From the IMG/VR virus record IMGVR_UViG_3300021440_001469, positions 1-52,888 of that record: DNA of 52,888 nt; one strand, 5' to 3'. Shown in pieces: positions 1 to 52,888 of this stretch. A program made the translations under genes and the position numbers. Each line of letters begins with the position of its first letter. The first letter of the stretch is position 1. The DNA comes from a virus (lineage: Duplodnaviria > Caudoviricetes). Under the pieces are notes generated by a model. It was not told the DNA's origin and searched no databases. It was given only the letters and a program-made list of their open reading frames with translations.

Positions 1-1272
1 GTGGGCAAGCTCACGGATATAGAGCTGAGAAAGTGGATCAAGGCGGGGGCGCCGGTCGTCAAGTCGGACGGGGGCGGGCTCTGCTTCACCATGTCCGCCA
101 ACCAGGCCCACGAGCGGGTCGGGTCGTGGATCGTTCGTTACCGCTTCGACGGCAAAGGGCGAGAACTCACCCTGGGGCGCTACCCTGAAATCTCCCTGGC
201 AGTTGCCCGCGGCCTGGCTATGGAAGCCCGCGCCAAGATCCAGCAAGGCACCGACGTAGCACGGGAGAAGCAGCAAACCCGAATCAAGCGAGCGGCTGCC
301 AAGTCGTTCAGGGAGCTGGCCGCCGACTACATGGACAAGACGTTTCCGCGCCTGTCCGAAAGCACCGCCAAGCAGCGGCGCCGCTACATTGAAGGGCCGA
401 TTGCCGCCCGCCTGGGGGCGATACCGGCCCGCGAGGTCACAACCGCCGACGTGGTGGCCTTGCTCGAAAGCGTCGGCGTCCGCTCTGCCAACGTGGCGGA
501 GATGGTGTTCACCGCCCTCTCGGAGATCTTCAAGCACGGGCTCGCCCGCCACGTCGTCACGGCCAACCCTTGCACCGGCATTTCGGTGTCGGCGATCTGC
601 GGCAAGCCAGAACCCCGCCGGCAACGCCTCAAGCTCACCGAGGCCGAATTACGGGCATTGCTGCCCGCCCTGCCATCCATCGGAACAGAGAACACCCTGT
701 CCGTGAAGCTGTTGTTGGTGACCTGTACGCGCATCGGCGAACTGACCCGCGCCGAATGGAAGGACGTGACCCTTGAGCGGGCGGAGTGGTTCGTTCCTGA
801 CGAGAACAGCAAGACCGGCAAGGGCTTCACCATCCCGCTGCCGCCCTGTGCGGTGGAATGGATGCGGAGCCTTCATGTCCTGGCCTGTGGTTCCCGCTAC
901 GTGCTCCCGGCCCGCAACAAGCACCACAAGCACGGCGGCGCCGACCGCCATTTCGAACAGCGAAGCCTGAACAACATCCTGCACAAGCTCTGCGACGAGC
1001 TGGGCGACAAGGTGCGCCGCTTCACCCCCCACGACCTGCGCAGCACTGCCCGTAGCCACCTGGCGGCCCTGGGGGTGCCCGTGCTCATTGCCGAGCGTTG
1101 CCTGAATCACGCGCTGGGCGGGCTAGTGGCGGTCTATGACCAACACGATTACATGACCGAGCGCCGCGCCGCCCTGGAGCTGTGGGCGTCGTTCCTGCTG
1201 GCCTGCGAAGAGGGCCGGGAGTGGGTGGCGCCTGGCGGCAAGGTCGTGCCGATCCGTGGGCGTGCAGCATGA
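1..1272 (+). CDS. int: P4-like tyrosine integrase with N-terminal arm-binding domain
   Basis: DGGGL...YRFDGK..LTLGRYPEISLA arm domain; catalytic motifs TRIGE, SKTG, HDLRS, LNH, VYD. Confidence 0.95.
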   Translation: MGKLTDIELRKWIKAGAPVVKSDGGGLCFTMSANQAHERVGSWIVRYRFDGKGRELTLGRYPEISLAVARGLAMEARAKIQQGTDVAREKQQTRIKRAAAKSFRELAADYMDKTFPRLSESTAKQRRRYIEGPIAARLGAIPAREVTTADVVALLESVGVRSANVAEMVFTALSEIFKHGLARHVVTANPCTGISVSAICGKPEPRRQRLKLTEAELRALLPALPSIGTENTLSVKLLLVTCTRIGELTRAEWKDVTLERAEWFVPDENSKTGKGFTIPLPPCAVEWMRSLHVLACGSRYVLPARNKHHKHGGADRHFEQRSLNNILHKLCDELGDKVRRFTPHDLRSTARSHLAALGVPVLIAERCLNHALGGLVAVYDQHDYMTERRAALELWASFLLACEEGREWVAPGGKVVPIRGRAA

Positions 1273-1295
1273 ACTGAAGATCAACCGAGCAGCAC

Positions 1296-1351
1296 GCCGC
1301 GCCTAGGTCGGCCAGCCGAAAACGGGGAAACCATCGCCCCGCTGGCGCGGC
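1296..1351 (+). ncRNA. Structured RNA downstream of integrase, resembling the int-alpA motif
   Basis: Outer stem GCCGCGCC/GGCGCGGC enclosing hairpins TCGG-CCAG-CCGA and CGGGG-N9-CCCCG; lies between int and the alpA region. Confidence 0.5.
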
Positions 1352-1383
1352 ACCTTATTCGATGGGTGCCGATGGAGCACCAC

Positions 1384-2121
1384 ATGAAAAACAGACTCTC
1401 TTGGGCGCGTGCAATTAATGTGCGTGGCGTCTGCCTGACGGCCGACGAGCGCGCCGCCGGCTGGCCCGATGCATTCACCCTTGAAAATCTGATCTGCTTG
1501 CAGTACCCATTGGAAGGCAGCACAGAGGAAAAGAAGCGGGCCGGCAGCAATCAGAGGGCACTACTCCGCGTGATGCAGGGAGACATTAAGGCCGGCGCGC
1601 TGCCAGCCGTGGAGCGCACCCGAACTGAAACGGTGTACGAGGAAGTCCCCGACGTATGGGCTAGCCTCGCCGCGGGCAGCGCGTCGCTGGGCTCTCATGA
1701 CTGGCGCGCGCGCGACACCAAGCCCCGCATGAAGAGAGTCAAGACAGGGGAGCGCACCGTCACCTATCCCGTGATCGAAGCCCGCGCCTTCCGCGCATGG
1801 CTGCTGAACTGTGAGGAAGCACCAAGCGCCCACGTCGACGCATGGTTTGAGGCCGTTGCCGTGGATGTTGAAAACGAAGATGACGGCCCGCCACAACTTA
1901 CCGAGATGAGACGCGCTGCCATAGTCAGTCAGTTGTCTAGACATTATCCGAGCCTGGAACACGACTTTAACCGCGGTGAAAGCTGGATCAAAGAATGCAG
2001 CACGGGTAGCCGCGGAGTCTATTACCTCGAAAAAATCAAAGAAGGATGCCGCAAGAAATGGGGCGAGGCGGCCGTGTACTCTCCGCCCCTGGCAACCATC
2101 CGAACCCATAAGATGAGGTGA
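1384..2121 (+). CDS. Hypothetical satellite protein (possible regulator)
   Basis: Open frame with GGAG RBS before ATG 1384; occupies the usual slot after the integrase. Confidence 0.7.
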   Translation: MKNRLSWARAINVRGVCLTADERAAGWPDAFTLENLICLQYPLEGSTEEKKRAGSNQRALLRVMQGDIKAGALPAVERTRTETVYEEVPDVWASLAAGSASLGSHDWRARDTKPRMKRVKTGERTVTYPVIEARAFRAWLLNCEEAPSAHVDAWFEAVAVDVENEDDGPPQLTEMRRAAIVSQLSRHYPSLEHDFNRGESWIKECSTGSRGVYYLEKIKEGCRKKWGEAAVYSPPLATIRTHKMR

Positions 2122-2289
2122 AAGGCCCGATTTTTCCCGTTGATACCTCGGATTCACCTCAGATTCACCTCAGATTTTCTTTGCTTTCCTCGTTTTGTTG
2201 AACTGCATCCCAAGCCGCCGCGGCGGATTGATAGGAGTTCAACGAAATGGGTATTACCACTGAACAACTTGCGGAGCTGCTTCACCTCA
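2114..2289. promoter_or_regulatory. TTCACCTCA repeat cluster (candidate operator sites)
   Basis: Copies at 2153-2161, 2164-2172, 2281-2289 and inverted at 2114-2122. Confidence 0.45.
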
Positions 2290-2441
2290 AGCCGCAAAGC
2301 CTGCGGGCTGCGCTTTCGCGTGATGGGCATTACTTCGGATTGCGGCCGCGGAAGCTGCCGAATGGGCGGCTGGTCTGGCCTCACGATGCGCTCCAGCGGC
2401 TAACCACGCCTCAGCCCGCAGCAAAAGGGGCGGGACAATGA
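2247..2441 (+). CDS. Small excisionase-like winged-HTH DNA-binding protein
   Basis: TTEQLAELLHLKPQSLR...P.KLPNGRLVWP; AGGAG RBS. Confidence 0.7.
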   Translation: MGITTEQLAELLHLKPQSLRAALSRDGHYFGLRPRKLPNGRLVWPHDALQRLTTPQPAAKGAGQ

Positions 2442-2722
2442 AACTACGCCCCCGCGCCGCTCAGTCGGCACCGCCGGCTTTCCGCCTCACCGATGCCGCC
2501 GCCGCATCGATTCCCGACGCGCTCCGTAACTTCGACGCCCTGCCCGATGCGGCAAACGTGCGCCTTCCCGTGGTGGTGGCCCTCTTCGCTTGCTCGCCCG
2601 CCACCGTTTGGCGCCGCGTCAAGAAGTCCGCCTTGCCCGCTCCGCGCAAGCTGTCCCAAGCCGTTACGGCTTGGAATGTTGGCGAGCTGCGCAAGGCGCT
2701 TCGCGGGGAGGCCTGGCAATGA
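2438..2722 (+). CDS. alpA: AlpA-family regulator
   Basis: VRLPVVVALFACSPATVWRRVK...PAPRKL...TAWNVGELR. Confidence 0.9.
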   Translation: MKLRPRAAQSAPPAFRLTDAAAASIPDALRNFDALPDAANVRLPVVVALFACSPATVWRRVKKSALPAPRKLSQAVTAWNVGELRKALRGEAWQ

Positions 2723-3069
2723 CTTATGCCGTTATGGATGGCCGGCTTCATAAAATCGGTGTTGAATTTGATGATCGGCACGTCGGCTGGTGGTTCCGAA
2801 TGGAATCACTCGGAATTGAGTTCATGGCGTGGCCCACAAGTGGCGGGGTCGACCCCGACGACGGCAGCGGCCCTCACTTTCTCTGTGCGGAAGTGAGTTG
2901 CTCCGCATCGGCTTGGCCTGAGCAGTACATCACGATGAGGCTAGGCGACTCCGGCACGGTGACTGAAGACCTGTTTGCCTCCATGACTTTGAAGGCACTG
3001 CGCGCCGCATATCCTGACGTTTTCGCCGGGTTTGTCGGCACTGTGGAAAAACCAGCGGGGGCGGCATGA
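2719..3069 (+). CDS. Hypothetical cargo protein A
   Basis: ATGA overlap with alpA stop; MTYAVMDGRLHKIG... Confidence 0.65.
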   Translation: MTYAVMDGRLHKIGVEFDDRHVGWWFRMESLGIEFMAWPTSGGVDPDDGSGPHFLCAEVSCSASAWPEQYITMRLGDSGTVTEDLFASMTLKALRAAYPDVFAGFVGTVEKPAGAA

Positions 3070-3257
3070 TCGATACCGACTCCATCATCGACCAATTCCG
3101 CAGCGCCGACGCGGCCCTCTTCGCTTGCTTGCTCGCCACCGTCTGGCACCGGGTAAAACAGTGCGCCCTGACCGCTCCGCGCAAGCTGGCCGAAGCCGTT
3201 ACGGCCCGGAATGTTGGCGAACTGTGCAAGGCGCTTCGCGGGGAGGCCTGGCAATGA
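3066..3257 (+). pseudogene. Chimera of primase N-terminus and AlpA C-terminus (duplication junction)
   Basis: MIDTDSIIDQFR matches primase start MIDTASILDQFR; 3113-3258 is a diverged copy of 2578-2723. Confidence 0.8.
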
Positions 3258-3547
3258 CCCGCACCCCTGACGACATCACCAAAACGCTACGCCGTGTGCT
3301 GAAGCGGGCCCGCGCTGCCCAAACAGCAGCGGACGTTCGCGTCACGCCTGCCGAACGCCTCGCCCTCCTCGAAAATCTGCTGCCGGCCGCCATCGCTCAC
3401 GCTCGCGCTAACGAGCGCCGGCGGGCGCACTATGCTGTGCTGTGCGGCTGCCGGGTTTTCGTGAGAACGACCGTATACGGTGCCGTCATCGTGTCGCCTG
3501 ACAAAGACGCGGCTCCGGTGGCCATGTCCAACGCAATGCGCGTGTGA
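3254..3547 (+). CDS. Hypothetical cargo protein B
   Basis: ATGA overlap with upstream stop; MTRTPDDITK... Confidence 0.6.
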   Translation: MTRTPDDITKTLRRVLKRARAAQTAADVRVTPAERLALLENLLPAAIAHARANERRRAHYAVLCGCRVFVRTTVYGAVIVSPDKDAAPVAMSNAMRV

Positions 3548-3554
3548 GGGCGGC

Positions 3555-6521
3555 ATGATCGATACCGCTTCCATACTCGACCAATTCCGCACCGCTGCTG
3601 CGGCCCGCGGGCTGCTGCTGCCCGATCACCTCGACGCTGACGGCAAGCTGCACCGCTGCGAGCTGGCCAGCGGCGCCAAGGGCAAGAAGGACGGCGCCTA
3701 TCTGCTGCACCTCGACGGCGTGCCGGCCGGGGGCTTCCAGAACTTCAAGGATGGGCTCGAGTGGGAGAACTGGAAGGCCGACATCGGCCGCCAGCTTACC
3801 CCCGAGGAAGAAGCCGCCCACCGGGCCCGCGTGGAAGCCCAACGCGCCGAACGCGAGGCCGAAGCCAAGGCCAAACGGGAGAAGGCCCGCCGCAAGGCTA
3901 ACGCGATCTGGAACGGTGCCAAGCCGGCGCCGGACGATCACCCTTACCTGCTCCGCAAGGGCGTTCCGTCCTTCGGCCTGCGGGTGGCCGCCTGGCCGAA
4001 GTGGCAGGAGCTGCGCCCCGGTGAATGGCGGGAAGAGCGCATTCCGGGCGCCTTGCTGGTGCCGATGCGCAGCCCTTCGGGCACGCTGCACAGCCTGCAA
4101 GCGATCTACGCCGACAAGGTGGACGGGCGGGACAAGGATTTTCTTCCGGGCGGCGAGAAGGCCGGCAAGTTCCATCTGATCGGCGAGATTACCGAAGGCG
4201 CGCCCCTGTGCGTGGCCGAAGGCTACGCCACGGCCGCCAGCATTCACCAGGCGACCGGCTGGCCGGTGGCGGTGGCCTTCGATGCCGGCAGCCTCGAGCC
4301 CGTTGCCCGCGCCTTGCGCGAGGTGCACCCCGCGGTGCGCTTTGTGATCTGCGCCGATGACGATCACCAGACCGCCGGCAACCCTGGCCGCAGCAAGGCC
4401 GAAGCCGCGGCCCGTGCGGTGGGCGCAGCGGTGGCGGTGCCGGTCTTCGGCCCGGATCGCCCCGCGAACGCCACCGACTTCAACGACCTGGCCAGCCTCG
4501 CCGGCCTCGATGCGGTGCGCGGTATCGTGCAGGCTGCGGCCGCGATAGCCGCCCCGCAGGGCGATGAAACGCCCATCGATGCACCTTCCCCCATGCTCGA
4601 AGCTGAAACGCCCGCCAGCGGGCCGGAAACGGCCCCCGCTGCGCCTCCTGCTCCATCCGCTGACGAACCCGACAAGCCCGCCAAGCGCACCCGCTCGAAA
4701 GCGAGGGGCAAGGCCAATGCCGGGCAGGCACCGGCACCGGGCGGCGAGTTGTTCGAGCTGCGCGACGGCAACGACGGCCGGGGCGTCTATCGCCTGAAGG
4801 TCGAGAAGCGCGGCGATGGCTGGGAACAGATCGAACAGTTCGTGTGCGCCCCCCTCGAGATCACGCACCAGTGCCGGGACGCCCGCGGCGAGGGCTGGCA
4901 GCGCCTGGCCACCTTTCAGGATCATGACGGCCGCCGCCGCCGGGTGCTGGTGCCTGACGACATGCTCGAAGGCGACGGCGCCGCGCTGGCCCGGCTGCTG
5001 CGCACGCATGGCCTGTTCATCGGCGACAACAAGGGCGGGCTGCTCAAGATGTACGTGAACCGCTCCCGTCCGCCAGCCCGTGCCCGCCTGACCGCCCGCA
5101 TCGGTTGGCATGAAGGCGTCGACGAGCCCGGCCGCTGGTCCTACATCCTGGGGGGCGATGCCGATCCGCTCGCCCCAGACGGGGCGGAACTGTGGCTGCA
5201 CCAGGCCAACGGCAGCGGACATGCCCAGTTCAAGCAGGCCGGCAGCCTCGAAGACTGGCGGGCCAACGTGGCCGCCCTGGCGGTGGGCAACAGCCGGTTG
5301 ATCTTCGCGTTGTCGGCCGCGTTTGCCGGTGGCCTGTGCTGGCTGCATCCGAACGTATCAGGCGGCTTCCATTGGGCCGGCGGTTCGAGCCTGGGGAAGT
5401 CGGCCCTGCTCTACGCTGCGGCGAGCCTGTGCGGCCCGGCGACCTACCGCCGGACATGGCTGCTCACGGCAACGGCAATCGAAGGCGTTGCCGCCGGGCA
5501 CTGTGACGCGCCACTCTTGCTCGATGAACTCAAGCAGGCCGGCAACCCGCGGGACGTGGCCCAAGCGGCCTACATGCTCACCAGCGGGCAGGGCAAGGGA
5601 CGCGGGCAGGCGGCCGGCGGACTGCGGGAAACCGCGGCCTTCTCGCTGCTGTTCCAGTCGAACGGGGAAATCGGCTTGACTCAGTTCCTCGAAGAGAACC
5701 AGGAACGCGCCTATGCAGGGCAAGAGGTGCGCTTCTGCGAGCTGCCCGCCGATGCCGGCGCCGGCTTCGGCTGCTGGGACGTGCTGCACGGCCTGCCCGA
5801 TGGCGCCCGCTTCTCCGAAACCCTGCAACGCAACGCCGCCAAGCACTACGGCACGGCCTGGCCCGAGTTCATCCGCCGTGTGATCGGGGAGCGGGACACG
5901 ATGCCCGCTCAGTTCGAAGAACTGCGACAAGCCTTCAACGACCGCGCCCTCAGCGACAAGGCCGGCGGACAGGCGATCCGGGCGGCGACCCGCTTCGCTG
6001 CGGTGGCCTACGCGGGCGAGAAGGCCACCGAATGGGGGCTGACCGACTGGCCGCAAGGCGAGGCGATCAAGGCGGCTTTCCGCATGTTCAAGGACTGGCT
6101 GCACGCCTTTGGCGGTGAAGAGAACCGCGAGCCACGCAAGATGGTGGAACAGGTGCAGGCGTGGATTCAAGCCCATGCCGGCGCCCGCCTGGAAGACTGG
6201 CGCCGCCCCAGCATCAGCGACACGCACGCCCCGCGGACGATGAACCGGGCCGGCTGGAAGCGCCCGACCAAGGAAACCGCCAGCCTCAACGAACCCGATC
6301 ACGTCTTTGAATATCTGATCTATCCGGCGGTGTTCAAGGGCGAATTGTGCAACGGGTTTGACCCGGCACAGGTGGCCAAGGTGCTGCTTGCTGAGGGGCT
6401 GCTTGAGCATGGCGACGGCCGGAACATCCCGATCAAGGCGAGAGAGCCCGGAGTGGACGGCACGAGCCGCTTGTATTGCATAAAACCGGCGGTGTTTGGG
6501 TGGGGTGAAGACCATGATTGA
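3555..6521 (+). CDS. Primase-helicase (Toprim + DUF927/SF3-like helicase)
   Basis: Toprim VAEGYATA, ICADDD, DFND; Pro/Ala linker; Walker A GGSSLGKS and Walker B LLLDE. Confidence 0.9.
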   Translation: MIDTASILDQFRTAAAARGLLLPDHLDADGKLHRCELASGAKGKKDGAYLLHLDGVPAGGFQNFKDGLEWENWKADIGRQLTPEEEAAHRARVEAQRAEREAEAKAKREKARRKANAIWNGAKPAPDDHPYLLRKGVPSFGLRVAAWPKWQELRPGEWREERIPGALLVPMRSPSGTLHSLQAIYADKVDGRDKDFLPGGEKAGKFHLIGEITEGAPLCVAEGYATAASIHQATGWPVAVAFDAGSLEPVARALREVHPAVRFVICADDDHQTAGNPGRSKAEAAARAVGAAVAVPVFGPDRPANATDFNDLASLAGLDAVRGIVQAAAAIAAPQGDETPIDAPSPMLEAETPASGPETAPAAPPAPSADEPDKPAKRTRSKARGKANAGQAPAPGGELFELRDGNDGRGVYRLKVEKRGDGWEQIEQFVCAPLEITHQCRDARGEGWQRLATFQDHDGRRRRVLVPDDMLEGDGAALARLLRTHGLFIGDNKGGLLKMYVNRSRPPARARLTARIGWHEGVDEPGRWSYILGGDADPLAPDGAELWLHQANGSGHAQFKQAGSLEDWRANVAALAVGNSRLIFALSAAFAGGLCWLHPNVSGGFHWAGGSSLGKSALLYAAASLCGPATYRRTWLLTATAIEGVAAGHCDAPLLLDELKQAGNPRDVAQAAYMLTSGQGKGRGQAAGGLRETAAFSLLFQSNGEIGLTQFLEENQERAYAGQEVRFCELPADAGAGFGCWDVLHGLPDGARFSETLQRNAAKHYGTAWPEFIRRVIGERDTMPAQFEELRQAFNDRALSDKAGGQAIRAATRFAAVAYAGEKATEWGLTDWPQGEAIKAAFRMFKDWLHAFGGEENREPRKMVEQVQAWIQAHAGARLEDWRRPSISDTHAPRTMNRAGWKRPTKETASLNEPDHVFEYLIYPAVFKGELCNGFDPAQVAKVLLAEGLLEHGDGRNIPIKAREPGVDGTSRLYCIKPAVFGWGEDHD

Positions 6522-7023
6522 CTGGTCCGCACTGGTGGCAGATTCGGCCCCGAATCTGCCTAATAATGAGGCAAAAGAGCCGTGTTCCGATCCGACATGT
6601 AGGAACAAACCCGCTTTTTCCGAAATCGTCGGAACGTCCGAAACCCGCGCCCCGTCTGGGTTTGCGCGGTTTTGTTCCGATGTTCCGAGTGTTCCACACG
6701 ATTTTGAAAGGCCAAGGGTAAGCGAACACGAAAAACACAATCAAACGTCATTTATAGAGCCGGCGGGGGGTGGGGTTAAAGGGCAATCTGCGCCGCATAA
6801 AAAAGCCGTCGATTCGTCATGCCGAACGTGTGCGAGCCTGCGCCGGCCGGGCCTGTCGGATGGCTACTGCGGGGGGCGTGACGATCTGCCGCCGGCCTAC
6901 GGACCAGGGCACCCGCTGCGCCAGTTGCCCGCTGATGTGGGAGAGACCTGCCCGGCCTGGCGGCGGCATGCTGCCTTCGAAGGGGCGGGCCCCCCGCGGG
7001 TCCTCCTCAGCCCAACCCATTGA
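6514..7023 (+). CDS. Hypothetical protein overlapping the iteron region, Cys-rich C-terminus
   Basis: Overlaps primase stop; CRTC...YC...HPL...TC; may be partly non-coding origin. Confidence 0.45.
   Translation: MIDWSALVADSAPNLPNNEAKEPCSDPTCRNKPAFSEIVGTSETRAPSGFARFCSDVPSVPHDFERPRVSEHEKHNQTSFIEPAGGGVKGQSAPHKKAVDSSCRTCASLRRPGLSDGYCGGRDDLPPAYGPGHPLRQLPADVGETCPAWRRHAAFEGAGPPRVLLSPTH
6583..6695 (-). repeat. GGAACA iteron cluster 1 (putative origin)
   Basis: Multiple TGTTCC(GA)/GGAACA copies right after the primase gene. Confidence 0.7.
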
Positions 7024-7038
7024 GGGTAATTCGCACCC
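6998..7038 (+). other. Putative cos packaging site
   Basis: GGGTCCT (identical to lambda cosQ) at 6998-7004, then dyad GGGT-AATTCGC-ACCC, upstream of a Nu1-like gene. Confidence 0.5.
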
Positions 7039-7087
7039 GTTTGGGTGGGTAAGTAGCGCATCACCGAATTACTGAACAGGTGGCACC

Positions 7088-7669
7088 ATGGATGACAAAC
7101 TGACACCGAGCCCGACCACGCCAGCACCGAGCCCCGCGCCCTTGCGCCCGTCAACTTCGGCGCCGCTCCCCTTCGATCCGGCGGACCTGGCCCGCAGCAT
7201 CCGGGTGAATCAGGCGACCTTTGCCAAGATGGCCGGAGTAAGCCGTCAGACCGTATCGGTTTGGGTCCGCAGTGGAAAAATCAAATCGACATTCCCTGAC
7301 GGCTCCCTCGATCCGCAGCAAGCCGCCCGCGAAATCATTCAGAACACCGACCCGGCCCGGCTGCGTGCCCGTGTGTTCAAGATCGCCTCAGAAGATGCCC
7401 AAGCCTTGCGCCGTCGATTGTCGGCCGCCTCCAGCGAGGCCAGCACCTGGCGCGACAAGTACGAAGCCCTTGCGAGCTTCCATGCTGGATTCGTGGCGGC
7501 GCTGCTGGAAAGCGGGGTCGATGCGCTCAAGATCGAGTACGCCGAATGGCTGGCCGGAGGCGGGCAGGATGCGCCGGACGTTGAAGCCACCAGCCCGGAC
7601 GAAGAGCCCGAGCCGCCGGCCCTTCCCTTGTTTGCCGCGGGACTTGAGGCGGAAGCGAAAGCCCTATGA
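7088..7669 (+). CDS. Nu1/Rpp-like winged-HTH protein (small-terminase-like)
   Basis: VNQATFAKMAGVSRQTVSVWVRSGKI resembles the lambda Nu1 N-terminus; followed by a helical coiled-coil. Confidence 0.6.
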   Translation: MDDKLTPSPTTPAPSPAPLRPSTSAPLPFDPADLARSIRVNQATFAKMAGVSRQTVSVWVRSGKIKSTFPDGSLDPQQAAREIIQNTDPARLRARVFKIASEDAQALRRRLSAASSEASTWRDKYEALASFHAGFVAALLESGVDALKIEYAEWLAGGGQDAPDVEATSPDEEPEPPALPLFAAGLEAEAKAL

Positions 7670-7689
7670 CCCGGCAGAGCAAAAGCCAA

Positions 7690-7810
7690 TCGGAACACTC
7701 GGAACACTCGGAACACTCGGAACAGAAACCGGAAACCCAAGCGGGGCGCGGCTTTCCAACGGTCTATGTTGTTCCTACATTCAGTTCACTAAGTAGGAAC
7801 AATCGGAACA
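7690..7810 (+). repeat. GGAACA iteron cluster 2 (inverted counterpart of cluster 1)
   Basis: (TCGGAACAC)x3 plus TCGGAACA, then further GGAACA copies. Confidence 0.75.
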
Positions 7811-8175
7811 CTTCCCACCCTTCGGCCCCTGCCCTGCGCAGTCTGGCGCCCATCCCACGCCCCCCCGGTTTTTTGCGGATCGTTCAGGCGTCTGCACACT
7901 GCCCTTGATGCCGGCCCGGGGTGGCTGGCCGATCCCCCCGGCTGTGCTCACCTGCCCGTCACCTGCCGGCCTACGCCCGCACCCTGACACCATTCGCCCT
8001 TAACAATGTCAGCCCATCCGCGGTAGTAAACACCCATGATTTCCCCGGCACCGAGCCCACCGCCCACCGGCCGCCGATATAGGCTCTTCATGATTCAGGG
8101 GTTTCCGAAAAACCCTGAATTGCTTCATTTACGATTTGACAGCGTTTCACCCAACATCAACCCGGAGCATTCAAC

Positions 8176-8499
8176 ATGTCTTTCATTTTCCGCAAGTCCG
8201 CCCCCGCCTCAATTCCCGTGACCGTCCGTCTTCAAACTCTGGATCAGGATATCAACCTTGAATGCCGCCCCATGGGTGTTCATACCCTTGGCGAATGGGC
8301 AGAACGTGCATTGGCAAAATCCGACGTATCCGGGATTTCGGAGATTGTTGTCGGCTGGGATGCGGAGGACCAGAACGGCCGGCCGGTGCCGCTTACGCCG
8401 GCAACCGTGGCCGAACTGCTCGATAGCGCGCCGAATGTGGCCACCGATATCGTTCACGCCTATCTCGAAGCCAACAGGCAGGCGCGCCTGGGAAACTGA
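8176..8499 (+). CDS. Tail assembly chaperone (lambda gpG analogue)
   Basis: IVVGWD...PLTP..VAELLD..P...AY......RLGN; GGAG RBS; ends at a slippery site upstream of a TMP. Confidence 0.85.
   Translation: MSFIFRKSAPASIPVTVRLQTLDQDINLECRPMGVHTLGEWAERALAKSDVSGISEIVVGWDAEDQNGRPVPLTPATVAELLDSAPNVATDIVHAYLEANRQARLGN
8490..8496 (+). other. Programmed -1 frameshift site G GGA AAC
   Basis: X XXY YYZ heptamer just before TGA; the -1 frame reads CTG ATG GAG into the next ORF. Confidence 0.8.
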
Positions 8500-8813
8500 T
8501 GGAGGCTGCCGCCGCCTTGTGCAGTGCGCAGCCTGGGGACGATCAGTTGGCCATGTTTGGCTTGAAGAGGTCCGACTTCGATCAGACCTTGCATATCTGG
8601 CCGGACAATTGGAATGTCGTACGGCTTTTTGAAACGCTTCAAACGCAGTGGAAGATTGTTCCGGGTGGTGACAGATTTGTGTTTACCGGCATTGACTACG
8701 CGACAGCCGTGCTTATGGCAAAAACCCTCGGCATGGAGTTTACCCCTGACTTCTTCGCGGACTTTCGGGTTCTGGAAGATGAAGGACTCCGCCATCTGAA
8801 CGAAAGAAAATGA
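8499..8813 (+). CDS. DUF1799-like gpT portion of the G-T fusion chaperone
   Basis: IWPDNWNVVRLFETLQTQW...TGIDY...FRVLE motif. Confidence 0.85.
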   Translation: MEAAAALCSAQPGDDQLAMFGLKRSDFDQTLHIWPDNWNVVRLFETLQTQWKIVPGGDRFVFTGIDYATAVLMAKTLGMEFTPDFFADFRVLEDEGLRHLNERK

Positions 8814-9266
8814 TGAATGCTCAAAAAATCCTGCTCGAAATAGCAGCCGAGAATAAATCCGCACCCGGATGGGCCTCCGATCAGCTTGCCGCGCTTGGCT
8901 TGGAGGGGTCCGGCTTCAATCAGCTTGCCGCGTTTGGCTTGGAGGGGTCCGGCTTCAATCAGCTTGCCGCGTTTGGCTTGGAGGGGTCCGGCTTCAATCA
9001 GCTTGCCGCGCTTGGCTTGGAGAGGTCCGGCTTCAATCAGATGTTGCATATCTGGCCGGAAAATTGGAACGTCGTACGGCTTTTTGAAACCCTTCAATCG
9101 CAGTGGAAGATTGGTCCGGACTGTGACAGATTTGTGTTCACCTGCATCGACTACGCGCCAGCCGTGCTTATGGCAAGACCCTCGGCATGAAGAGTACCCC
9201 TGACTTCTTCGCGGACTTTCGGGTTCTGGAAGATGAAGGACTCCGCCATCTGAACGAAAGAAAATA
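8810..9266 (+). pseudogene. Degenerate duplicate: TMP start fused to repeats and a frameshifted gpT copy
   Basis: 8997-9332 duplicates 8541-8879; a 1-bp loss near 9176 gives an early stop at 9190. Confidence 0.8.
8880..9035 (+). repeat. 4 x 39-bp tandem repeat
   Basis: ATCAGCTTGCCGCGYTTGGCTTGGAGRGGTCCGGCTTCA units, no spacers. Confidence 0.95.
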
Positions 9267-11591
9267 ATGTCCGCCCAAAAAATCCTGTACGAAATAGCCG
9301 CCGAGGACAAAACGGCGGCCGGATGGTCCTCCGCCAAGTCCACCGCGGAACGGCATCTTGCCGACATTGAAGGTCGGTCACGGATATTTGCTGACAGGAT
9401 CAACGGGGCATTCAACGCCGTGAAGGGGCTGGCGATTGCGGGCGCATTCTACGAAACCGCCGGCTCCCTGAAGTCCGCCCAGATGGAAGCCCAGAAGCTG
9501 GCGGCCTCGCTCAACTTCTCAAGCGGCAATCGGGCCGGCGAAGAACTCGACTATCTGCGGAACATCACCCGGCAATTGGGCATAGATTTCGGTTCCGCCT
9601 CCAGTGCTTACGCGAGCTTTGCGGCATCGGCCAAGGGCACCGGGATAACCGGCGACACCCTCAAGGCAACCTTTGAAGGCGTCAGCAAGGCAGCCTCTCA
9701 ACTCGGGCTGTCTTCCGATGAAACACAAGGCGCTCTCCTGGCGCTTTCGCAGATCATCAGCAAGGGCACCGTGCAGGCTGAAGAGCTGCGCGGGCAACTC
9801 GGGGAACGGATTCCGGGAGCGTTCAATCTGGCAGCCAAGGCCATGGGGCTGACCACGGCGGAGCTAGGCAAGCTGCTGGAGTCGGGCAGACTCACGGCGG
9901 CTGAATTCCTGCCCCGATTTGCCGCCGAACTGAATGCCACTTACCAGGCGACGGATAACCTCGTTGCGGCCACTAATCGGCTGACGAGCGCCTGGGACGA
10001 CTGGAAGCGCTCGCTCTCCGATGGGGCGAGCGGCAGCGGGCTTTCATGGCTGACACGCGGTTTGAATGAATCGTCCGCGGCGATGCGGGAGCTTGGATCG
10101 GAAGCCGGCCTTGTGAAGCACATTCTTGTTGCCATTGGCGGCTTTCAGTTTGGCGCCGTGAATGCCGGAAAGTTCGATACCGCACAGGTCCGCCAAAATC
10201 TTCAGGCGGAGTTCTCGCGGGTGCAGGACGGCCTTGCGCAGGTGGAAGCCCTCAAGAATAAACAGGGCGGCTATCTCGATCCGTTCCAAACGCAAACCCT
10301 TGCCGACTACCGGCGCGAACTTGGCCGGACCAGGGCTGCCATCGATGAACTTGCCGTTTCAGAAGGCAAGCGGAAAGGGATCAAGCTCCCCAACCTCAAG
10401 GAAGACTTTGCCGCGCAGCAAGCCCGGCAGCAGGAAGGGCTGAAGGCCTACCTGAAAGATATGCGTCAGGCCACGAAGGATGAAAAAACCGCTGCCAGCG
10501 TCGCCGCCGAGACTGACGCCTTCACCAAGGCGACTTCCGATTTAGACCGAAAATCCAAGGCCTACACCGACGCCTTGAAGATTCATCAGGCGCGCATCGC
10601 CGAAATTCAGAAGGGTGACAAGTCTGGAACCGGCCGTGCCAATTCCGTCGACCTTAACGCGGGTTCCGATCTGGAAGCCGCCAAGAGCTATGCCGATGCG
10701 CTTAAGTCGTTGGGCGATATCCAGACGACGGCGACGAACAGCGCCCTAGGCCTGGCCGGCGCCGAGGCCTCGCTAACCAAGATCATGTCATCGCCCGAAT
10801 GGGAGCGGATGCCCGCAGCTTGGCGGGATGTCATCAAGTCCCAGTACGAAGCCGCAACGGCGGCCGAGCAACTCGCCCGCGGCGAAGCGAATGTCCGCGA
10901 AGCGTACAGCCGGACGATTCAGCCCTTGCGTGCCCGGCTGGCCGAACTCGAAAAAGAAAACGACTTCTACGGCCTGACCGAAGCACAGATCAATGTTGTG
11001 ACGGCGGCCCGGCTTGACGAGGCGGTCGCCATCGCCAAGGCCAACGGCGCCACCGAAGATCAACTCGCCACCTTGGAGCGAGAGCGAGACCTGCGCTTGG
11101 ATATCGCCAAGCAGGCCGGGGCAAAGGACTTGCGGGACATGGAGCGCCGCCGCATTCAGGATGAGGCTGACGACCTGAAGCGGATTGGCGATGACGTCGG
11201 GGCATCCCTGACCGATGCGATATTCCACGGTGGGCGAAACGGCTGGAAAATGCTCAAGTCGACCATCGAAGCCACCGTCATCCGCGCCACCATCCTTCCT
11301 CAAATTCAGGGTGAAATAAACTCGGTTCTCGGGGCTGTCATGGGGAAGGGCACCGGGGGTTCATCCGGTGGCTTGCTGGGTGGCCTGGGTTCGTTCGTCA
11401 AGGATTTGTTCGCCGGCAGCAACAAAGCGGCCGTATCCGCCAAGTCCGCTGAAGACTACATCGACGCCGGGGGACTGGGGCAGGGGAAGTCGATGGGCTT
11501 TCTGGCCGCACTCTTCAACAGCCTGCCGAGCTTCGACGTTGGAACGCCTTATGTGCCGCGCACCATGTTCGCCAAGATCCACTGTCACTGA
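9267..11591 (+). CDS. Tape measure protein, truncated near its C-terminus by IS21
   Basis: Tape-measure domain LSQIISKGTVQAEELRGQLGERIPG; long helical Ala-rich body; C-terminal motif FDVGTPYVP...AKIH cut at 11582. Confidence 0.9.
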   Translation: MSAQKILYEIAAEDKTAAGWSSAKSTAERHLADIEGRSRIFADRINGAFNAVKGLAIAGAFYETAGSLKSAQMEAQKLAASLNFSSGNRAGEELDYLRNITRQLGIDFGSASSAYASFAASAKGTGITGDTLKATFEGVSKAASQLGLSSDETQGALLALSQIISKGTVQAEELRGQLGERIPGAFNLAAKAMGLTTAELGKLLESGRLTAAEFLPRFAAELNATYQATDNLVAATNRLTSAWDDWKRSLSDGASGSGLSWLTRGLNESSAAMRELGSEAGLVKHILVAIGGFQFGAVNAGKFDTAQVRQNLQAEFSRVQDGLAQVEALKNKQGGYLDPFQTQTLADYRRELGRTRAAIDELAVSEGKRKGIKLPNLKEDFAAQQARQQEGLKAYLKDMRQATKDEKTAASVAAETDAFTKATSDLDRKSKAYTDALKIHQARIAEIQKGDKSGTGRANSVDLNAGSDLEAAKSYADALKSLGDIQTTATNSALGLAGAEASLTKIMSSPEWERMPAAWRDVIKSQYEAATAAEQLARGEANVREAYSRTIQPLRARLAELEKENDFYGLTEAQINVVTAARLDEAVAIAKANGATEDQLATLERERDLRLDIAKQAGAKDLRDMERRRIQDEADDLKRIGDDVGASLTDAIFHGGRNGWKMLKSTIEATVIRATILPQIQGEINSVLGAVMGKGTGGSSGGLLGGLGSFVKDLFAGSNKAAVSAKSAEDYIDAGGLGQGKSMGFLAALFNSLPSFDVGTPYVPRTMFAKIHCH

Positions 11592-11725
11592 CCGCCACAT
11601 AGAGCCACCGATGATCGGCACAATGGAGCCAGTTTGAATCGTCTCTGACGGACGTCTTCGGGGGTCAAGAGTGGTGGTTTTTCGGGGTGCTGGCAAGCGC
11701 TGTTTTGGCCTTGTTCGGACCCTGC
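11583..11725 (-). mobile_element. IS21-family right end (IR plus 3' tip of istB)
   Basis: TGTCA terminus with repeated TGAYCGSCACA..GAGCCA sites at 11589-11607 and 11612-11631. Confidence 0.85.
11665..11725 (-). pseudogene. istB: Detached 3' end of istB (QGPNKAKTALASTPKNHHS*)
   Basis: Joins in frame to the istB fragment at 52461 across the CCCTGC duplication. Confidence 0.85.
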
Positions 11726-11766
11726 TAACGCCCCGCGCGATAAATGCCGATTTTGAGGCGAGATAA
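11726..11766 (+). repeat. Prophage left terminus with transposase-binding sites
   Basis: TAA start; GCGCGATA at end positions 10-17 and GCGAGATA at 33-40. Confidence 0.8.
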
Positions 11767-11819
11767 TCGGCGGGCCGCGGGCTTTCGGGTGGCGAAAGAA
11801 AATTACGCTGGGCGGCACT

Positions 11820-12446
11820 TTACTTTGTCCTGGCTGGCTCCGCGAGCCTTCCGGAGCTAAATGCGGGCTCCCAGGTAGACGGGCTCTCGTCTTGTGCCTT
11901 GGCGGTCACCACGCCCATGGCCAGGTCGTCGAGGACCGCCTCGAGGAGGCGAAGGCCTATCGGGGCGAGGGCGCGGCGCCAGAGGCCGGACGGGGTTTCG
12001 CCCGGCAGGACGTGGCACCAGTCCTGCCGGGCGATGGGCCCGGTGTCGGCGCCGTCATCCATCCAGTACGCGGTGCCGCCGGCGATGGCGTCGCCCATGT
12101 GAACGGTCCAGCGGACGGCGTCGCGGCCACGGTGCCTCGGGAGCAGCGATGGATGATAGCCGAGGGCGCCGTAGCGGGTGGCGGCGCGGGCGCCGGCGTC
12201 GATGAAGGCGTGGGCATGGGCGGCTACGATCACATCGACGCCGGTGGGGATATCGGCGGCGCTTACCCTTCGGCCGCGGTGCTCGGCCGGCACGCCGGAC
12301 TGCCGGGCCGCGGCGTAAAGGCGGTCGTATTCCTCACGGGGCGACGCCGGCGCCAGCACCTTGACCACCTCGTGGCCTCGCCGGAGGCACAGGCGCAGGG
12401 CCTCGGCGCCGAACCATTGCTGCCCTACGATCACGATGCGCATCAT
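11820..12446 (-). CDS. Formyltransferase (Fmt-like N-terminal domain only)
   Basis: YHPSLLPRHRG and DDGADTGPI motifs. Confidence 0.9.
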   Translation of the reverse strand: MMRIVIVGQQWFGAEALRLCLRRGHEVVKVLAPASPREEYDRLYAAARQSGVPAEHRGRRVSAADIPTGVDVIVAAHAHAFIDAGARAATRYGALGYHPSLLPRHRGRDAVRWTVHMGDAIAGGTAYWMDDGADTGPIARQDWCHVLPGETPSGLWRRALAPIGLRLLEAVLDDLAMGVVTAKAQDESPSTWEPAFSSGRLAEPARTK

Positions 12447-13561
12447 GCGGCCTCCCCGAGATAGCGGAAGCCCTGCACGGCGCGGAAGTGCCCCCCGTAT
12501 CCCGCGGCAGTCGGCCCCTGGCGTCCGGCTTTCCGGGCTGATCGATTGACCGACTCCGCACTGCGCCCCTTATGGGCGCCCACCAGCGCGGCTGACACCT
12601 GCGTCCAGTTGCGATCGCGACGCAATGCCGCGGCGAGGCCGGGGTGGCTGGTGTGAAAGAGCGTCCGTAGCGGCCGCCCGTAGCGGTTATGCCCTTCAAG
12701 CCAGGCCTGGCAGACGGCGTTGAGGAAGCGCATCCCGACGCCGGCCCCCTGCCATTCGGGCATGACCACCAGCCGGCATGCGCGGGCCTCGACAAGCCCC
12801 GGACGGGTGCTGACGGCCACATGGGCGACGAGTTGGTCGTCGATTGTGGCCACGTAGTTGGTGGCGGCGATCATGTGGGGCAGCTTCAGATAGTGATGCG
12901 CTTCAAAGGCTGGCCAGTGGCGCCAGTCTGTCTGGTGGATACACATTTCCAGGGGTGGGCGGCGCCGAAGTACCCCCCGTTCGAAGATGCCCGACCCGGT
13001 ATCGAAGACCCAGTCGGGCTGAACCCAATCGAGGATGTCGTAGTGGCACGAGAGGAGCACCACCCGCCCGCGGCTGCGGCGCCAGGCCTTGGCGAACGCC
13101 CCGGCGCCGACCCGTGCGATCTGGCGGTCGACCACCGACGAGAACTCATCGATGACCGCGAAGCGCGGCGCATCGCACACCAGTCGCGCGAGGTTGGCGC
13201 GGAATTGCTCCCCGTTTGACAGCACCTTGAACGGCCTCAGCCACGCCGGCACACTGCCCAGCCCAACGGCCGAGAGGGCAGCAAATGTGTCGTTGACGTC
13301 GCCTCTGGGGTTGATGGCGTCGATGATCGGAGCGGCGGTAGGCCAGGCCGGGGCGTAGATCGGGCCGAGCTGGCGGCCAAGGCTGGTCTTTCCGCTGCCG
13401 CTGGGGCCGACGATGACACCGATCTGCCAGTCGTCGCCTTCGATGGGCAGCTCGGCATCGAGGGCGAAATCGGCGCCCGACTCGACGTTGAAGAGGGATT
13501 TCACCCGTGCCGCACGGTACGAGTCGAAATCGCGGCAGGTGTTGCGGACGGCGAGCTTCAT
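12443..13561 (-). CDS. ABC ATPase - GNAT acyltransferase fusion
   Basis: GPSGSGKT, LSNGEQFR, VIDEF, SCH; then HHYL and RLVVMPEWQGAGVG (acyl-CoA binding motif). Confidence 0.9.
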   Translation of the reverse strand: MKLAVRNTCRDFDSYRAARVKSLFNVESGADFALDAELPIEGDDWQIGVIVGPSGSGKTSLGRQLGPIYAPAWPTAAPIIDAINPRGDVNDTFAALSAVGLGSVPAWLRPFKVLSNGEQFRANLARLVCDAPRFAVIDEFSSVVDRQIARVGAGAFAKAWRRSRGRVVLLSCHYDILDWVQPDWVFDTGSGIFERGVLRRRPPLEMCIHQTDWRHWPAFEAHHYLKLPHMIAATNYVATIDDQLVAHVAVSTRPGLVEARACRLVVMPEWQGAGVGMRFLNAVCQAWLEGHNRYGRPLRTLFHTSHPGLAAALRRDRNWTQVSAALVGAHKGRSAESVNRSARKAGRQGPTAAGYGGHFRAVQGFRYLGEAA

Positions 13562-13719
13562 ACGACCACCACCCGCGGCTTGAGCCCTTGGGCCAGGAGC
13601 TGCTTATAAACCAGCTCCTGGTGGGCCGCGTCGTCGCAGACGGCCACCACGCCGTATTGCTCGCGGTACTTGAAGCCGTTCTTACCCGGAGGGTTCGGTT
13701 TCGCTTCCTGATTTGCCAT
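13558..13719 (-). CDS. Small 53-aa protein coupled to the ATPase-GNAT gene
   Basis: GGAGG RBS; MANQEAK...EQYGVVAVCDD...KPRVVVV; ATGA overlap with the next gene. Confidence 0.8.
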   Translation of the reverse strand: MANQEAKPNPPGKNGFKYREQYGVVAVCDDAAHQELVYKQLLAQGLKPRVVVV

Positions 13720-13873
13720 GTGGCCTCCAATTGCCGGGCCCTCGGGGGGCTCGGGTTAGAGGCTCGGCGGCCTTCTGATAGAGCGTCCCGCGGCGGGGAC
13801 ACTTGATTTCGAGCCGACGGGCGTCGGCCACTGCCAGTTTCTTATTGCACTGCGCGCAACGAATTTCTTCCAC
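13682..13873 (-). CDS. com: Com-family zinc-finger regulator (fourth Cys replaced by Arg)
   Basis: EIRCAQCNKKLA...LEIKCPRRGTL; position after the tail genes near the phage end. Confidence 0.8.
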   Translation of the reverse strand: MEEIRCAQCNKKLAVADARRLEIKCPRRGTLYQKAAEPLTRAPRGPGNWRPHGKSGSETEPSG

Positions 13874-13919
13874 GTAAAAAAGCCTTTTGCGGTAGCCTCT
13901 GGCCCGCCGTGTGCACGGT

Positions 13920-14002
13920 GGCGGTGCCTTGGCCAAACGCAGGCCTGCTCTGCGGGAGGTGGCCACATCTGGTGCGCTAACACCAACTGCGGTCGCACCG
14001 TC
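13920..14002 (+). ncRNA. Putative cloverleaf-like structured RNA upstream of com
   Basis: GGCGGTGC/GCACCGTC closing stem; TGGCCA/TGGCCA, CGCAG/CTGCG and TGGTG-CGCTAA-CACCA stems; strand uncertain. Confidence 0.5.
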
Positions 14003-14006
14003 TCTC

Positions 14007-14231
14007 TTACACCTCGATATCCACAAAGGCGCCGCTCGGCGCCTGGCCCTCCACGGCCCCGCCCGGCCGGAAGTACACTGACTCTCCGACCGTGGCTGTC
14101 CCCCTGGCCATTGCCAGCGACCCGTCCGGCTGCTGAATCCTGAGCGTTGCGCCATCGACGGCGACGACCTCGCCGATCAGCAGCGGCGCCGACGGCACCG
14201 CGGATCGTATGTACTCCAGCAGACTAGCCAT
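14007..14231 (-). CDS. Small tail-associated protein
   Basis: Last gene of the tail operon; beta-rich GEV..VDG...ARG...GESVYFR.G. Confidence 0.7.
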   Translation of the reverse strand: MASLLEYIRSAVPSAPLLIGEVVAVDGATLRIQQPDGSLAMARGTATVGESVYFRPGGAVEGQAPSGAFVDIEV

Positions 14232-19281: not shown

Positions 19282-19692
19282 TCAGGCGATGCGGGTGAAC
19301 TTGAGCGTGGGGATGACGAGGTCGGTGCTGGCCGGGTCGGTGTAGTCGATCAGATCGACGGCATCGAGGGCCGGCGGATCGTCGTGGCGCCACACCACTT
19401 GATAGGCCGCTCCGCGGAAGCTCAAGGTGAAGACCTGGCCGGGCACGTCGGCGAAGGCGCGCAATTGCGCGAAGGCCGCCCGGCTGATGTCGCCGAAGTA
19501 GATCGCGCCATCCTGGCCGCCGCGCAGCGTGATCGGCTCGCCGGCCTGCATCACGGACACATCGATCCACAGCGCGCCGGTCAGCGTCGGCGTCACCGCC
19601 TGACGGATGGGGCTGAACCCGTGCTCGTCAGTGCGCACCAGGTCATCGGGCAGGGTGAGGAGGCTTACACCGTCCGTCAGTGTCGTGCTCAA
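19282..19692 (-). CDS. Distal-tail-like protein
   Basis: LPDDL...DE...TLTGAL...GEPITL; immediately after the TMP. Confidence 0.7.
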   Translation of the reverse strand: MSTTLTDGVSLLTLPDDLVRTDEHGFSPIRQAVTPTLTGALWIDVSVMQAGEPITLRGGQDGAIYFGDISRAAFAQLRAFADVPGQVFTLSFRGAAYQVVWRHDDPPALDAVDLIDYTDPASTDLVIPTLKFTRIA

Positions 19693-52330: not shown

Positions 52331-52419
52331 TTTGCGCCGCGCCGCGGGCTTTCGCCACTGAAAACACATTTTCACCCGGCCGCCCGCTATTTCCCCCTAC
52401 CGCCCACTAAATCCCGGAT

Positions 52420-52460
52420 TTATCTCGCTCAGGCCCTGGGGAATATCTCACCTCTGCTTA
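52420..52460 (-). repeat. Prophage right terminus with transposase-binding sites
   Basis: Read inward: TAA start; GTGAGATA at positions 10-17 and GCGAGATA at 33-40, same register as the left end. Confidence 0.8.
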
Positions 52461-52888
52461 CCCTGCCGCGGGGCGCGGTAGGACGCCCCGTCGAGGGTCA
52501 GGCAATAGGCGTTGTGGCGCAGCCGATCGACGGTGGCCGAGGCGAGCAGGCGGTTGCCCGGGAAGGCCTGGTCCCACTCGGTGAAGTCGAGGTTGCTGGT
52601 GACGATGGTGGCGGCCTGCTCGTAGCGCTCGGCGATCAGATCGTGCAGATCCTCGTCGGCCGGGGCGCGCAGCGGCTTGAGGCCAAAGTCGTCGATGATC
52701 AGCACCGGCACCCGGGCCAGCTGCTGGAGCTTTCGCTCGTAGTGGCCGATCGCCCGCGCCGCGTTGAGGCTGGCGAGCAGCTGCGCACAGGACGCAAACA
52801 CCACGTCCTGCCCCTGGCGCACCGCGCAGTGCCCGAGGGCCTGCGCCAGATGGCTCTTGCCGGTGCCGCAGGGCCCGGCGATCAGCAC
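52461..52888 (-). pseudogene. istB: IS21-family helper ATPase IstB, interrupted by the prophage (5' part outside window)
   Basis: GPCGTGKSHLA, LIIDDFG, TIVTSN, DRLRH, GASYR. Confidence 0.92.

Follow-up and report, generated by a model that had tools for sequence, protein, structure and literature searches.

A chaperone and tape measure gene cassette under purifying selection in a satellite-like mobile island

The window, that is the whole stretch of DNA analysed here, comprises the 52,888 bases of the IMG/VR provirus record IMGVR_UViG_3300021440_001469; positions 1-11582 are a mobile island and position 11583 onward is another element. The island carries three genes of a phage tail module, encoding the tail assembly chaperone G, its frameshift extension T and a tape measure protein (TMP), and these genes are under purifying selection, tighter than that on the island primase, at a divergence about equal to that of the island backbone. 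They stand alone in a satellite-like island, as the original prediction for this DNA had claimed: neither the window island nor its sister island L007 was found to encode tube, tip or head genes. With roughly even confidence, we interpret the cassette as functional late-gene cargo of a satellite family similar to phage-inducible chromosomal islands (PICIs) and P4, whose TMP would be built into tails made of the tube and tip proteins of a helper, a siphophage like the uncultured phage L004. The parts of the cassette in the window are as follows.

8176-8499 (+), tail assembly chaperone G, 107 aa (Pfam Phage_TAC_4, E 1.8e-7; phrog_569, E 2e-13)
8490-8496 (+), slippery heptamer G GGA AAC, -1 frameshift making G-T (read from the sequence)
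8499-8813 (+), T extension in the -1 frame (DUF1799, E 7e-14; phrog_680)
8810-9266 (+), degenerate tandem duplicate, in which a 39-bp repeat x4.1 lies between a copied TMP 5' start and a frameshifted second T, a pseudogene (self-blastn; Tandem Repeats Finder, TRF)
9267-11582 (+), TMP, codons 1-772 of ~828 (TMP_3, E 1.4e-27, for the open reading frame (ORF) 9267-11591)

PHROGs placed G, T and TMP alike in tail families, in agreement with Pfam. The 3' end of G reads CTG GGA AAC TGA (8488-8499), with the heptamer in the G frame and the stop codon at 8497-8499. G and T have the features of lambda-type chaperones, namely a protein of about 100-140 aa, an X XXY YYZ heptamer near the end of G and an open -1 frame of about 100 aa. 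Heptamer and frame relation are the same in L007 and in the complete phage tail module of L004; the T frame of L007 has ATT in place of ATG and hence no start codon of its own. The lambda-type order of tube gene, G and TMP is not kept, as the TMP follows downstream of a 450-bp duplicate and no tube gene was found 5' of G, either in 7670-8175 (~500 bp of non-coding DNA) or in L007. This gap is preceded by a gene for a helix-turn-helix (HTH) protein resembling the terminase small subunit TerS and, further upstream, by the primase gene. Pfam, PHROGs and the sequence itself thus confirm the originally predicted G, the intact G GGA AAC -1 frameshift into a DUF1799-like T, the TMP and the non-coding DNA upstream.

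By self-blastn, 8542-8879 matches 8997-9333 with 87.6% identity, and the 39-bp (13-aa) repeat (x4.1 at 8880-9040, TRF) sits at the joint of the two copies. The second T copy has a 1-nt deletion, and DUF1799 is matched partially in ORF 8810-9190 (Pfam). The tandem duplicate is absent from L007; its structure suggests an old duplication of 8542-9333 (3' part of T and TMP start) by unequal recombination between diverged island alleles.

The closest relative of the TMP (P0002, 86% identical, 828 aa) belongs to a metagenome-assembled genome of the Rhodocyclaceae and is encoded on metagenome contigs L006-L010. In sister island L007 the DUF927 primase and the backbone ORF are separated by 517 bp of non-coding DNA from G (107 aa, 75% identical to that of the window), which is followed by T and TMP (828 aa). 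Past the TMP follow isrK and C4 RNAs, two small ORFs, a DUF3987 gene, an HTH_17 gene, a 220-aa ORF, an HTH/ImmA-like gene and a resolvase gene, after which the uninterrupted island gives way to host sequence with rph and a gene for a HemN-like radical SAM protein. This distal part was not found to contain tube, tail-tip, head or lysis genes. Nonsynonymous to synonymous substitution ratios (dN/dS) were calculated by the Nei-Gojobori method for the window against L007/L006 and amounted to 0.21 for the primase (dS 0.65), 0.18 for G (dS 0.80), 0.13 for T (dS 1.12) and 0.09 for TMP codons 1-772 (dS 0.86). Constraint on the TMP extends over its length, with dN/dS between 0.04 and 0.15 in every one of seven 110-codon blocks. 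In divergence the cassette is therefore close to the backbone, and in constraint it exceeds the primase, which is hard to reconcile with a decaying remnant. That the cassette would be conserved in related satellites had been posed as a test by the original prediction, and L007, which keeps it under purifying selection, bears this out.

The predicted length of more than 770 aa for the window TMP applies to the ORF, which has 774 aa, but not to the protein, of which the ORF is a truncated form (full length ~828 aa) with two foreign terminal codons. It is collinear with the 807-830-aa relatives as far as ..MFAKIH (codon 772, nt 11582); the two foreign codons then close the frame, and the last ~56 codons are missing. 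Two features mark the break.

11578-11582 (no strand), TCCAC, target-site copy at the left prophage junction (window ..ATCCAC/TGTCAC.. versus L011 ..GGTGACA/TCCAC GAAGGC..)
11583-11657 (no strand), terminal repeat of the nested Mu-like prophage, ~75 bp, starting TGTCACTGACCG (TGTCAC...), which matches the inverted end in L011

L011, a metagenome contig, resumes the TMP frame exactly where the window copy of the gene breaks off, with a 5-bp target duplication, and contains the missing 56 codons. Over 50 bp, the prophage terminal repeat agrees to 88% with this inverted end, and further repeats match as well. Downstream of the TMP, L011 has a toxin-antitoxin-like pair, isrK/C4, two small ORFs as in L007 and DUF3987, and with 77-87% identity to L007 it is as distant from that island as the window island is. 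The junction sequences make it probable that L011 represents the other end of this prophage insertion. Its C-terminal TMP piece is likewise constrained relative to L007 (dN/dS 0.12; 42/58 residues identical). The truncation is a single recent transposition of the Mu-like prophage into TMP codon 772, and the cassette is currently dead in this copy. The rest of the satellite, which the original prediction had left to be sought, appears to be represented by the distal parts of L011 and L007, and these encode no tail or head set. The toxin-antitoxin-like pair of L011 consists of two small overlapping ORFs (482-1043, -) between the TMP stop and isrK, which are absent there in L007 and which resemble a BrnT/BrnA pair.

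The rest of the satellite had been placed beyond an IS21 element. This was not upheld, as it is the Mu-like prophage whose end interrupts the TMP, at 11583, and the istB gene lies at 52448-52888. The 5-bp duplication is compatible with either IS21 or a Mu-like element; position 11583 as an IS21 end was rejected because Mu-type late genes (Com etc.) directly follow and 41 kb separate it from the sole ist gene.

The nearest complete phage context of the cassette is L004, an uncultured siphophage on an IMG/VR contig with a TMP of 830 aa that is 62-63% identical to the island TMP. Its genes are ordered major tail protein (phrog_584), G (107 aa), T, TMP, minor tail protein and central fibre J; G and T are 53% and 50% identical to those of the window, with the same heptamer. 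The island cassette corresponds to the middle three genes of such a module. A second phage relative, L005, has a TMP 42% identical to that of the window. Another TMP relative, P0003 (807 aa, 62% identical), has a C-terminus of the island type, and the window TMP is itself also recorded for a contig of 90,494 bases. The island TMP (828 aa in L007) is as long as those of its phage relatives (830 and 828 aa), so that the changed tail length considered in the original prediction is not borne out; its last ~55 aa differ from L004 and L005. A scan of genome contigs with window TMP peptides yielded no relative.

The remainder of the island in the window, upstream of the cassette, is made up of the following features.

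1-1272 (+), island tyrosine integrase (Pfam Phage_integrase, Arm-DNA-bind_3, Phage_int_M)
1296-1365 (+), int-alpA RNA motif (Rfam RF02996, 64.7 bits against a gathering score of 35.8)
2438-2722 (+), AlpA-like regulator (Pfam Phage_AlpA, E 4.4e-4, just short of the cut-off)
3480-6521 (+), Toprim and DUF927 primase/helicase, the replication module (Pfam DUF927, E 5e-61; Toprim_3/4)
6496-7023 (+), backbone ORF of 175 aa, left border of the cargo slot (tblastn conservation)
7088-7669 (+), TerS/Nu1-like HTH protein (phrog_57, terminase small subunit, E 4e-8; weak Pfam HTH_17)
7690-7868 (no strand), non-coding block with iteron-like repeats, TCGGAACAC x3.9 at 7690-7724 (TRF)

Nearest relatives of the island primase are mostly from Zoogloea, and the island host is probably a Zoogloea bacterium. 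The non-coding block at 7701-7868 is 75% identical to L007 by blastn, with the GGGAACA repeats kept in the alignment, and the conserved iteron block (7690-7868) is a candidate replication origin. The whole island is estimated at ~18-19 kb from the window and the distal part of L007. It shares with gram-negative PICIs and P4 the integrase and AlpA genes at one end pointing inward, the primase, the lack of a full set of virion and lysis genes and a size within roughly 10-20 kb. Neither window 1-11582 nor L007 nor L011 was found to contain capsid, portal, terminase large subunit, tube or tip genes, and the hallmarks of capsid-forming PICIs (own capsid, portal, protease and head-tail connectors) were found in neither the window island nor L007.

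Species-representative genomes were scanned with a primase alignment, which gave 20 sister loci at 63-82% identity; these were compared by a tblastn panel, ORF lists, Pfam/PHROGs and Rfam. They share a common backbone of tRNA/tmRNA, int, int-alpA RNA, alpA, DUF927 primase, backbone ORF, an optional TerS-like gene, an optional slot content, isrK/C4, two small ORFs, DUF3987 and, further on, a resolvase. A tRNA or tmRNA gene adjoins int in L012, L015, L017, L018 and L023. The int-alpA RNA motif (RF02996) recurs in 10 sister loci, and by tblastn AlpA-like homologues (43-84% identity) are found in 9/20 and homologues of the 175-aa backbone ORF immediately 3' of the primase in 15/20; the latter had no match in Pfam or PHROGs. 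TerS-like HTH homologues occur in L015, L018, L021, L022, L023 and L031 and not in L007. The right border of the slot is formed by the antisense RNA pair isrK and C4 (Rfam RF01394 and RF01695; L007 6336-6524, L011 1113-1302). C4 is present in 12/20 sister loci, seven of which have isrK beside it. With the two small ORFs and DUF3987 that follow, this resembles a P4-type immunity/replication module and forms a second replication-type module in the element.

A TMP is encoded in seven of the 20 loci (L013, L018, L021, L023, L026, L027, L031), three others (L020, L022, L024) being cut by contig ends. Four of the seven have it between the backbone ORF and isrK/C4. The TMP of L026 comes directly after the primase in a locus that ends before the isrK/C4 border, that of L013 lies upstream of the primase and that of L023 follows the primase in a compact island. 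Six loci (L012, L014, L016, L017, L025, L029) have an empty slot of 0.45-1.1 kb. No TMP was found in the distant loci L019, L028 and L030 by tblastn with four TMP queries, the Pfam scan not having been applied to them. Head-type genes also occur: L015 has a single capsid gene and no TMP, L027 likewise a single capsid gene together with a TMP, and L026 an HK97-gp10-like gene after its TMP. The survey of related islands suggested by the original prediction recovered TMPs; a match to the window G or T was found in none of the 20 loci. Taken with the window/L007 type, the island TMPs fall into five mutually unrelated types. The positions of the TMPs and the empty slots on one backbone point to a cargo slot and not to prophage debris.

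Individual sister loci showed further particularities. In L023 (6069-17007), two tRNA copies enclose a compact island of ~10.8 kb whose genes are limited to int, alpA, the DUF927 primase, a TMP of 753 aa and one TerS-like gene; a second integrase lies beyond it. In the Aromatoleum island L025, an insert of ~1 kb splits the DUF927 primase (9998-14108), with tblastn pieces at 9998-11290 and 12336-14108. From an IMG/VR scan with the primase alignment, 80 of 568 loci were retained, nearly all of them distant (≤37% identity or Toprim domain only); ten of these 80 were examined (L041-L049, L065), and two of the ten (L042, L046) have a TMP beside AlpA and DUF927. L046 encodes a Mu-type capsid, a Phage_TAC_4 chaperone and a TMP_2 tape measure at 560-4258, with no tube gene between them.

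The preferred reading of the cassette as working satellite cargo is consistent with its fixed slot between the replication module and the isrK/C4 module, with tube, tip and head genes on neither side. The cassette would have been captured from the tail module of a lambda-like siphophage. Upon helper infection the island would make its own TMP, G would hold this TMP and G-T would bring helper tube subunits to it; in lambda, the TMP is kept in solution by G, and recruitment of tube subunits falls to the T part of G-T. In the resulting tails, tube and tip proteins would come from the helper and enclose a satellite TMP similar in length to the helper's own. A likely benefit would be independence from the helper TMP, or escape from factors that target it, be it in tail assembly (blockers like Tab, Tai and Rta) or at DNA entry. 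An altered tail length is probably not what the island gains, since its TMP is no shorter or longer than those of the phages.

Several observations weigh against this interpretation. The satellite lifestyle of the island family is read from gene content, and a TMP as long as those of phage relatives predicts no remodelling phenotype. No baseplate or tip partner is encoded, unlike in the PICI-like elements (PLEs) of Vibrio cholerae, and the six sister islands without any TMP indicate that the cargo is dispensable for island maintenance. No helper was found: among 1100 matching cultured phage records none covers at least 80% of the TMP (tblastn), the matches being to the TMP_3 domain only, with <60% identity and ≤28% of the query. 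When the TMP of the nested prophage was compared with four genomes holding five of the sister loci, it matched only the islands' own TMPs and no resident prophage. The window copy of the cassette is broken and carries a pseudogenised T duplicate, and its assignment to the same strain as L011, a separate record, is inferred from the junction. No sigma-70-like promoter was detected 5' of G (0 sites in 7600-9400, 0.5 expected), a result that is uninformative for a late promoter.

Among other explanations, the island TMP and chaperones might serve interference or defence only, trapping helper tube and tip proteins in dead-end assemblies that lower phage yield and protect the population, with the TMP unused for the island's own transfer. 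We consider this rather unlikely. Defences borne by islands and prophages are known to act on tail assembly: Tab recognises the TMP of the invading phage and is evaded by exchange of the TMP (PMC10884400), PICIs are among the carriers of Tai systems (PMC11364771) and Rta of PLE11 targets the TMP of phage ICP1 (PMC12987554). The lack of a tip partner and the C-terminal ~55 aa unlike those of L004 and L005 would also suit a decoy. A decoy, however, needs neither a full-length TMP of helper-like length with uniform constraint (the seven blocks above), nor G, nor an intact G-T frameshift. Tab, Tai and Rta are moreover small unrelated proteins and not TMPs, and the TMP of the PLE satellites is structural (PMC12987554). 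An element that is no phage satellite at all, for instance an integrative element with two replication modules and a TMP-like protein in a non-virion role, is a distinctly unlikely alternative. Its second replication-type module (isrK/C4 RNAs, DUF3987, HTH_17, resolvase) is atypical, and no terminase, portal or capsid gene was found in the window island. Against this stand the capsid genes (L015, L027) and the HK97-gp10-like gene (L026) in the same region of sister islands; to our knowledge, a G gene with a programmed frameshift into T occurs only in tail assembly, as in lambda G/GT, which also counts against a non-virion role. Integrase, int-alpA RNA, AlpA, primase, TerS-like gene and P4-type immunity RNAs together form the layout of gram-negative PICIs as given in the survey of these islands (PMC10111431).

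Least probable, and very much so, is a cassette without present function, be it what remains of a decayed prophage or a neutral fragment captured recently. The truncation by the prophage, the pseudogenised T duplicate and the empty slots in 6/20 sister islands would be compatible with it, as would the dynamic late zones of PICIs with their cycles of capture and loss (PMC10111431). Conversely, both flanks are conserved island backbone and not phage genes, and selection is not relaxed. Although dS amounts to ~0.8-1.1, frames of the 828-aa class, the heptamer and the T frame are retained in both lineages, with dN/dS of 0.09-0.18, and the truncation is one recent event with a target duplication whose missing end appears intact in L011. 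Because island backbone and then host genes follow the cassette (L007; L011) and selection is purifying, the cassette is not a decayed prophage; dN/dS values and flanks largely refute this explanation. An island embedded in a prophage tail operon, as in PMC10111431, was also considered and rejected, since L007 runs through its backbone into host rph and tRNA/tmRNA genes adjoin the sister islands. For annotation, the case is a warning against reading a TMP with its chaperones as a prophage marker.

Within the interpretation as satellite cargo, the main interest lies in the exchangeable TMP slot of the island family. One TMP type (L013 6819-10007, L018 16034-19504, L027 17139-19886) is 50-57% identical to the TMP of the nested prophage (window 19689-23201, -), and Mu-like phages of the nested kind are therefore candidate helpers of these three islands. 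As a rather improbable further reading, the slot may be an exchangeable helper-matching module by which a constant backbone is re-targeted to different tails through swapping of at least five unrelated TMP types, among them the lambda-like type with G/G-T. If so, it would be the satellite TMP, and not the capsid, that decides which tails carry the island and whether its DNA gets into helper-excluding cells. Since the backbone is shared, islands with an empty slot can be compared with those that have a TMP alone, a TMP with chaperones or a TMP with a capsid gene, which could reveal what a satellite gains from its own tail ruler.

The Mu-like prophage encodes Com, Mu gp36, a 1170-aa TMP, a MuB-like ATPase, Portal_Mu, Mu F and a virion morphogenesis protein, and occupies window positions 11583-52330. 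Its gene order is unusual for a Mu-like genome: the + strand at 43-52.3 kb has a lysis-terminase-portal-F-G operon, and the - strand at 11.8-40 kb a protease-capsid-tail operon, a fibre-like operon and early genes. The terminal region 52340-52888 contains IS21 istB (IstB_IS21, E 5e-42; 52448-52888), which runs off the window end just after the virion morphogenesis gene. Three elements are thus nested, the IS21 in or beside the prophage and the prophage in the island TMP, with the other prophage end outside the window.

Tail remodelling by a satellite had been put forward as a new strategy. This does not hold, as PLEs already replace TMP, chaperone and hub in helper tails (PMC12987554) and TMPs are reported in the EPIP satellites of Mycolicibacterium (bioRxiv Dec 2025, PMC12822802). 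The principle of tail remodelling by a satellite-encoded TMP and chaperone is already established by the PLEs. The satellites PLE1, PLE4 and PLE11 come with a TMP, a tail assembly chaperone and a baseplate hub of their own (Mathur, Boyd et al., Nature 2026, PMC12987554). In PLE11 virions the TMP and the hub are those of the PLE, the tube, sheath and baseplate those of ICP1, and the tails are 10 nm shorter; deletion of the PLE tmp cuts transduction by 96-99.9%. A figure legend in the same paper lists putative tmp genes in PLE-like elements and capsid-forming PICIs (cf-PICIs). Like the PLEs, the island has its own TMP and chaperone without tube genes (in PLEs, without tube or sheath genes), with the remainder of the tail presumably taken from a helper, and its family conserves TMP genes in more than one sequence type. 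Unlike the PLEs, it has an int-alpA-Toprim/DUF927 backbone, unrelated to theirs, and a classical G/G-T chaperone with a -1 frameshift, and would use a non-contractile lambda-like helper. No hub- or tip-like family was found among the scanned ORFs of the window island and the L007 distal part, and no Rta-like inhibitor was recognised in the island. The PLE11 TMP is 95 aa shorter than that of ICP1, whereas the island TMP has the length of its phage relatives.

Gram-negative PICIs have a dynamic late zone that captures late genes of helpers, and C4/isrK-type immunity RNAs (Mageeney et al., NAR Genom Bioinform 2023, PMC10111431). The island shares with them the int/AlpA zone, a primase family that includes DUF927, the C4/isrK RNAs and a late zone with captured genes; it differs in zone order, its C4/isrK RNAs being placed between the late cargo and DUF3987, a second gene of replication type. 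That survey covers Enterobacteriaceae and neighbouring families, with capsid genes as the commonest capture, and the term tape measure is absent from its main text. EPIPs resemble the island in having a satellite TMP without tail tube genes. They differ in also carrying TerS, head-tail adaptors, scaffold/capsid-type genes and a serine integrase and in having longer, variable tails, and the passages of PMC12822802 at hand report no G/GT pair. A published account of such islands in Zoogloea was not found in a search that did not cover the supplements of PMC12987554 and PMC10111431. Compared with an L004-type phage module, the island lacks the major tail protein, the minor tail protein and J.

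What distinguishes the present islands from the known satellites is their backbone and host group, the lambda-type G/G-T pair, the lack of a hub, a TMP of helper-like length and the presence of unrelated TMPs in one slot. If the cassette is functional, replacement of the TMP by satellites would not be peculiar to Vibrio PLEs and contractile tails and would extend to lambda-like non-contractile tails with the G/G-T frameshift.

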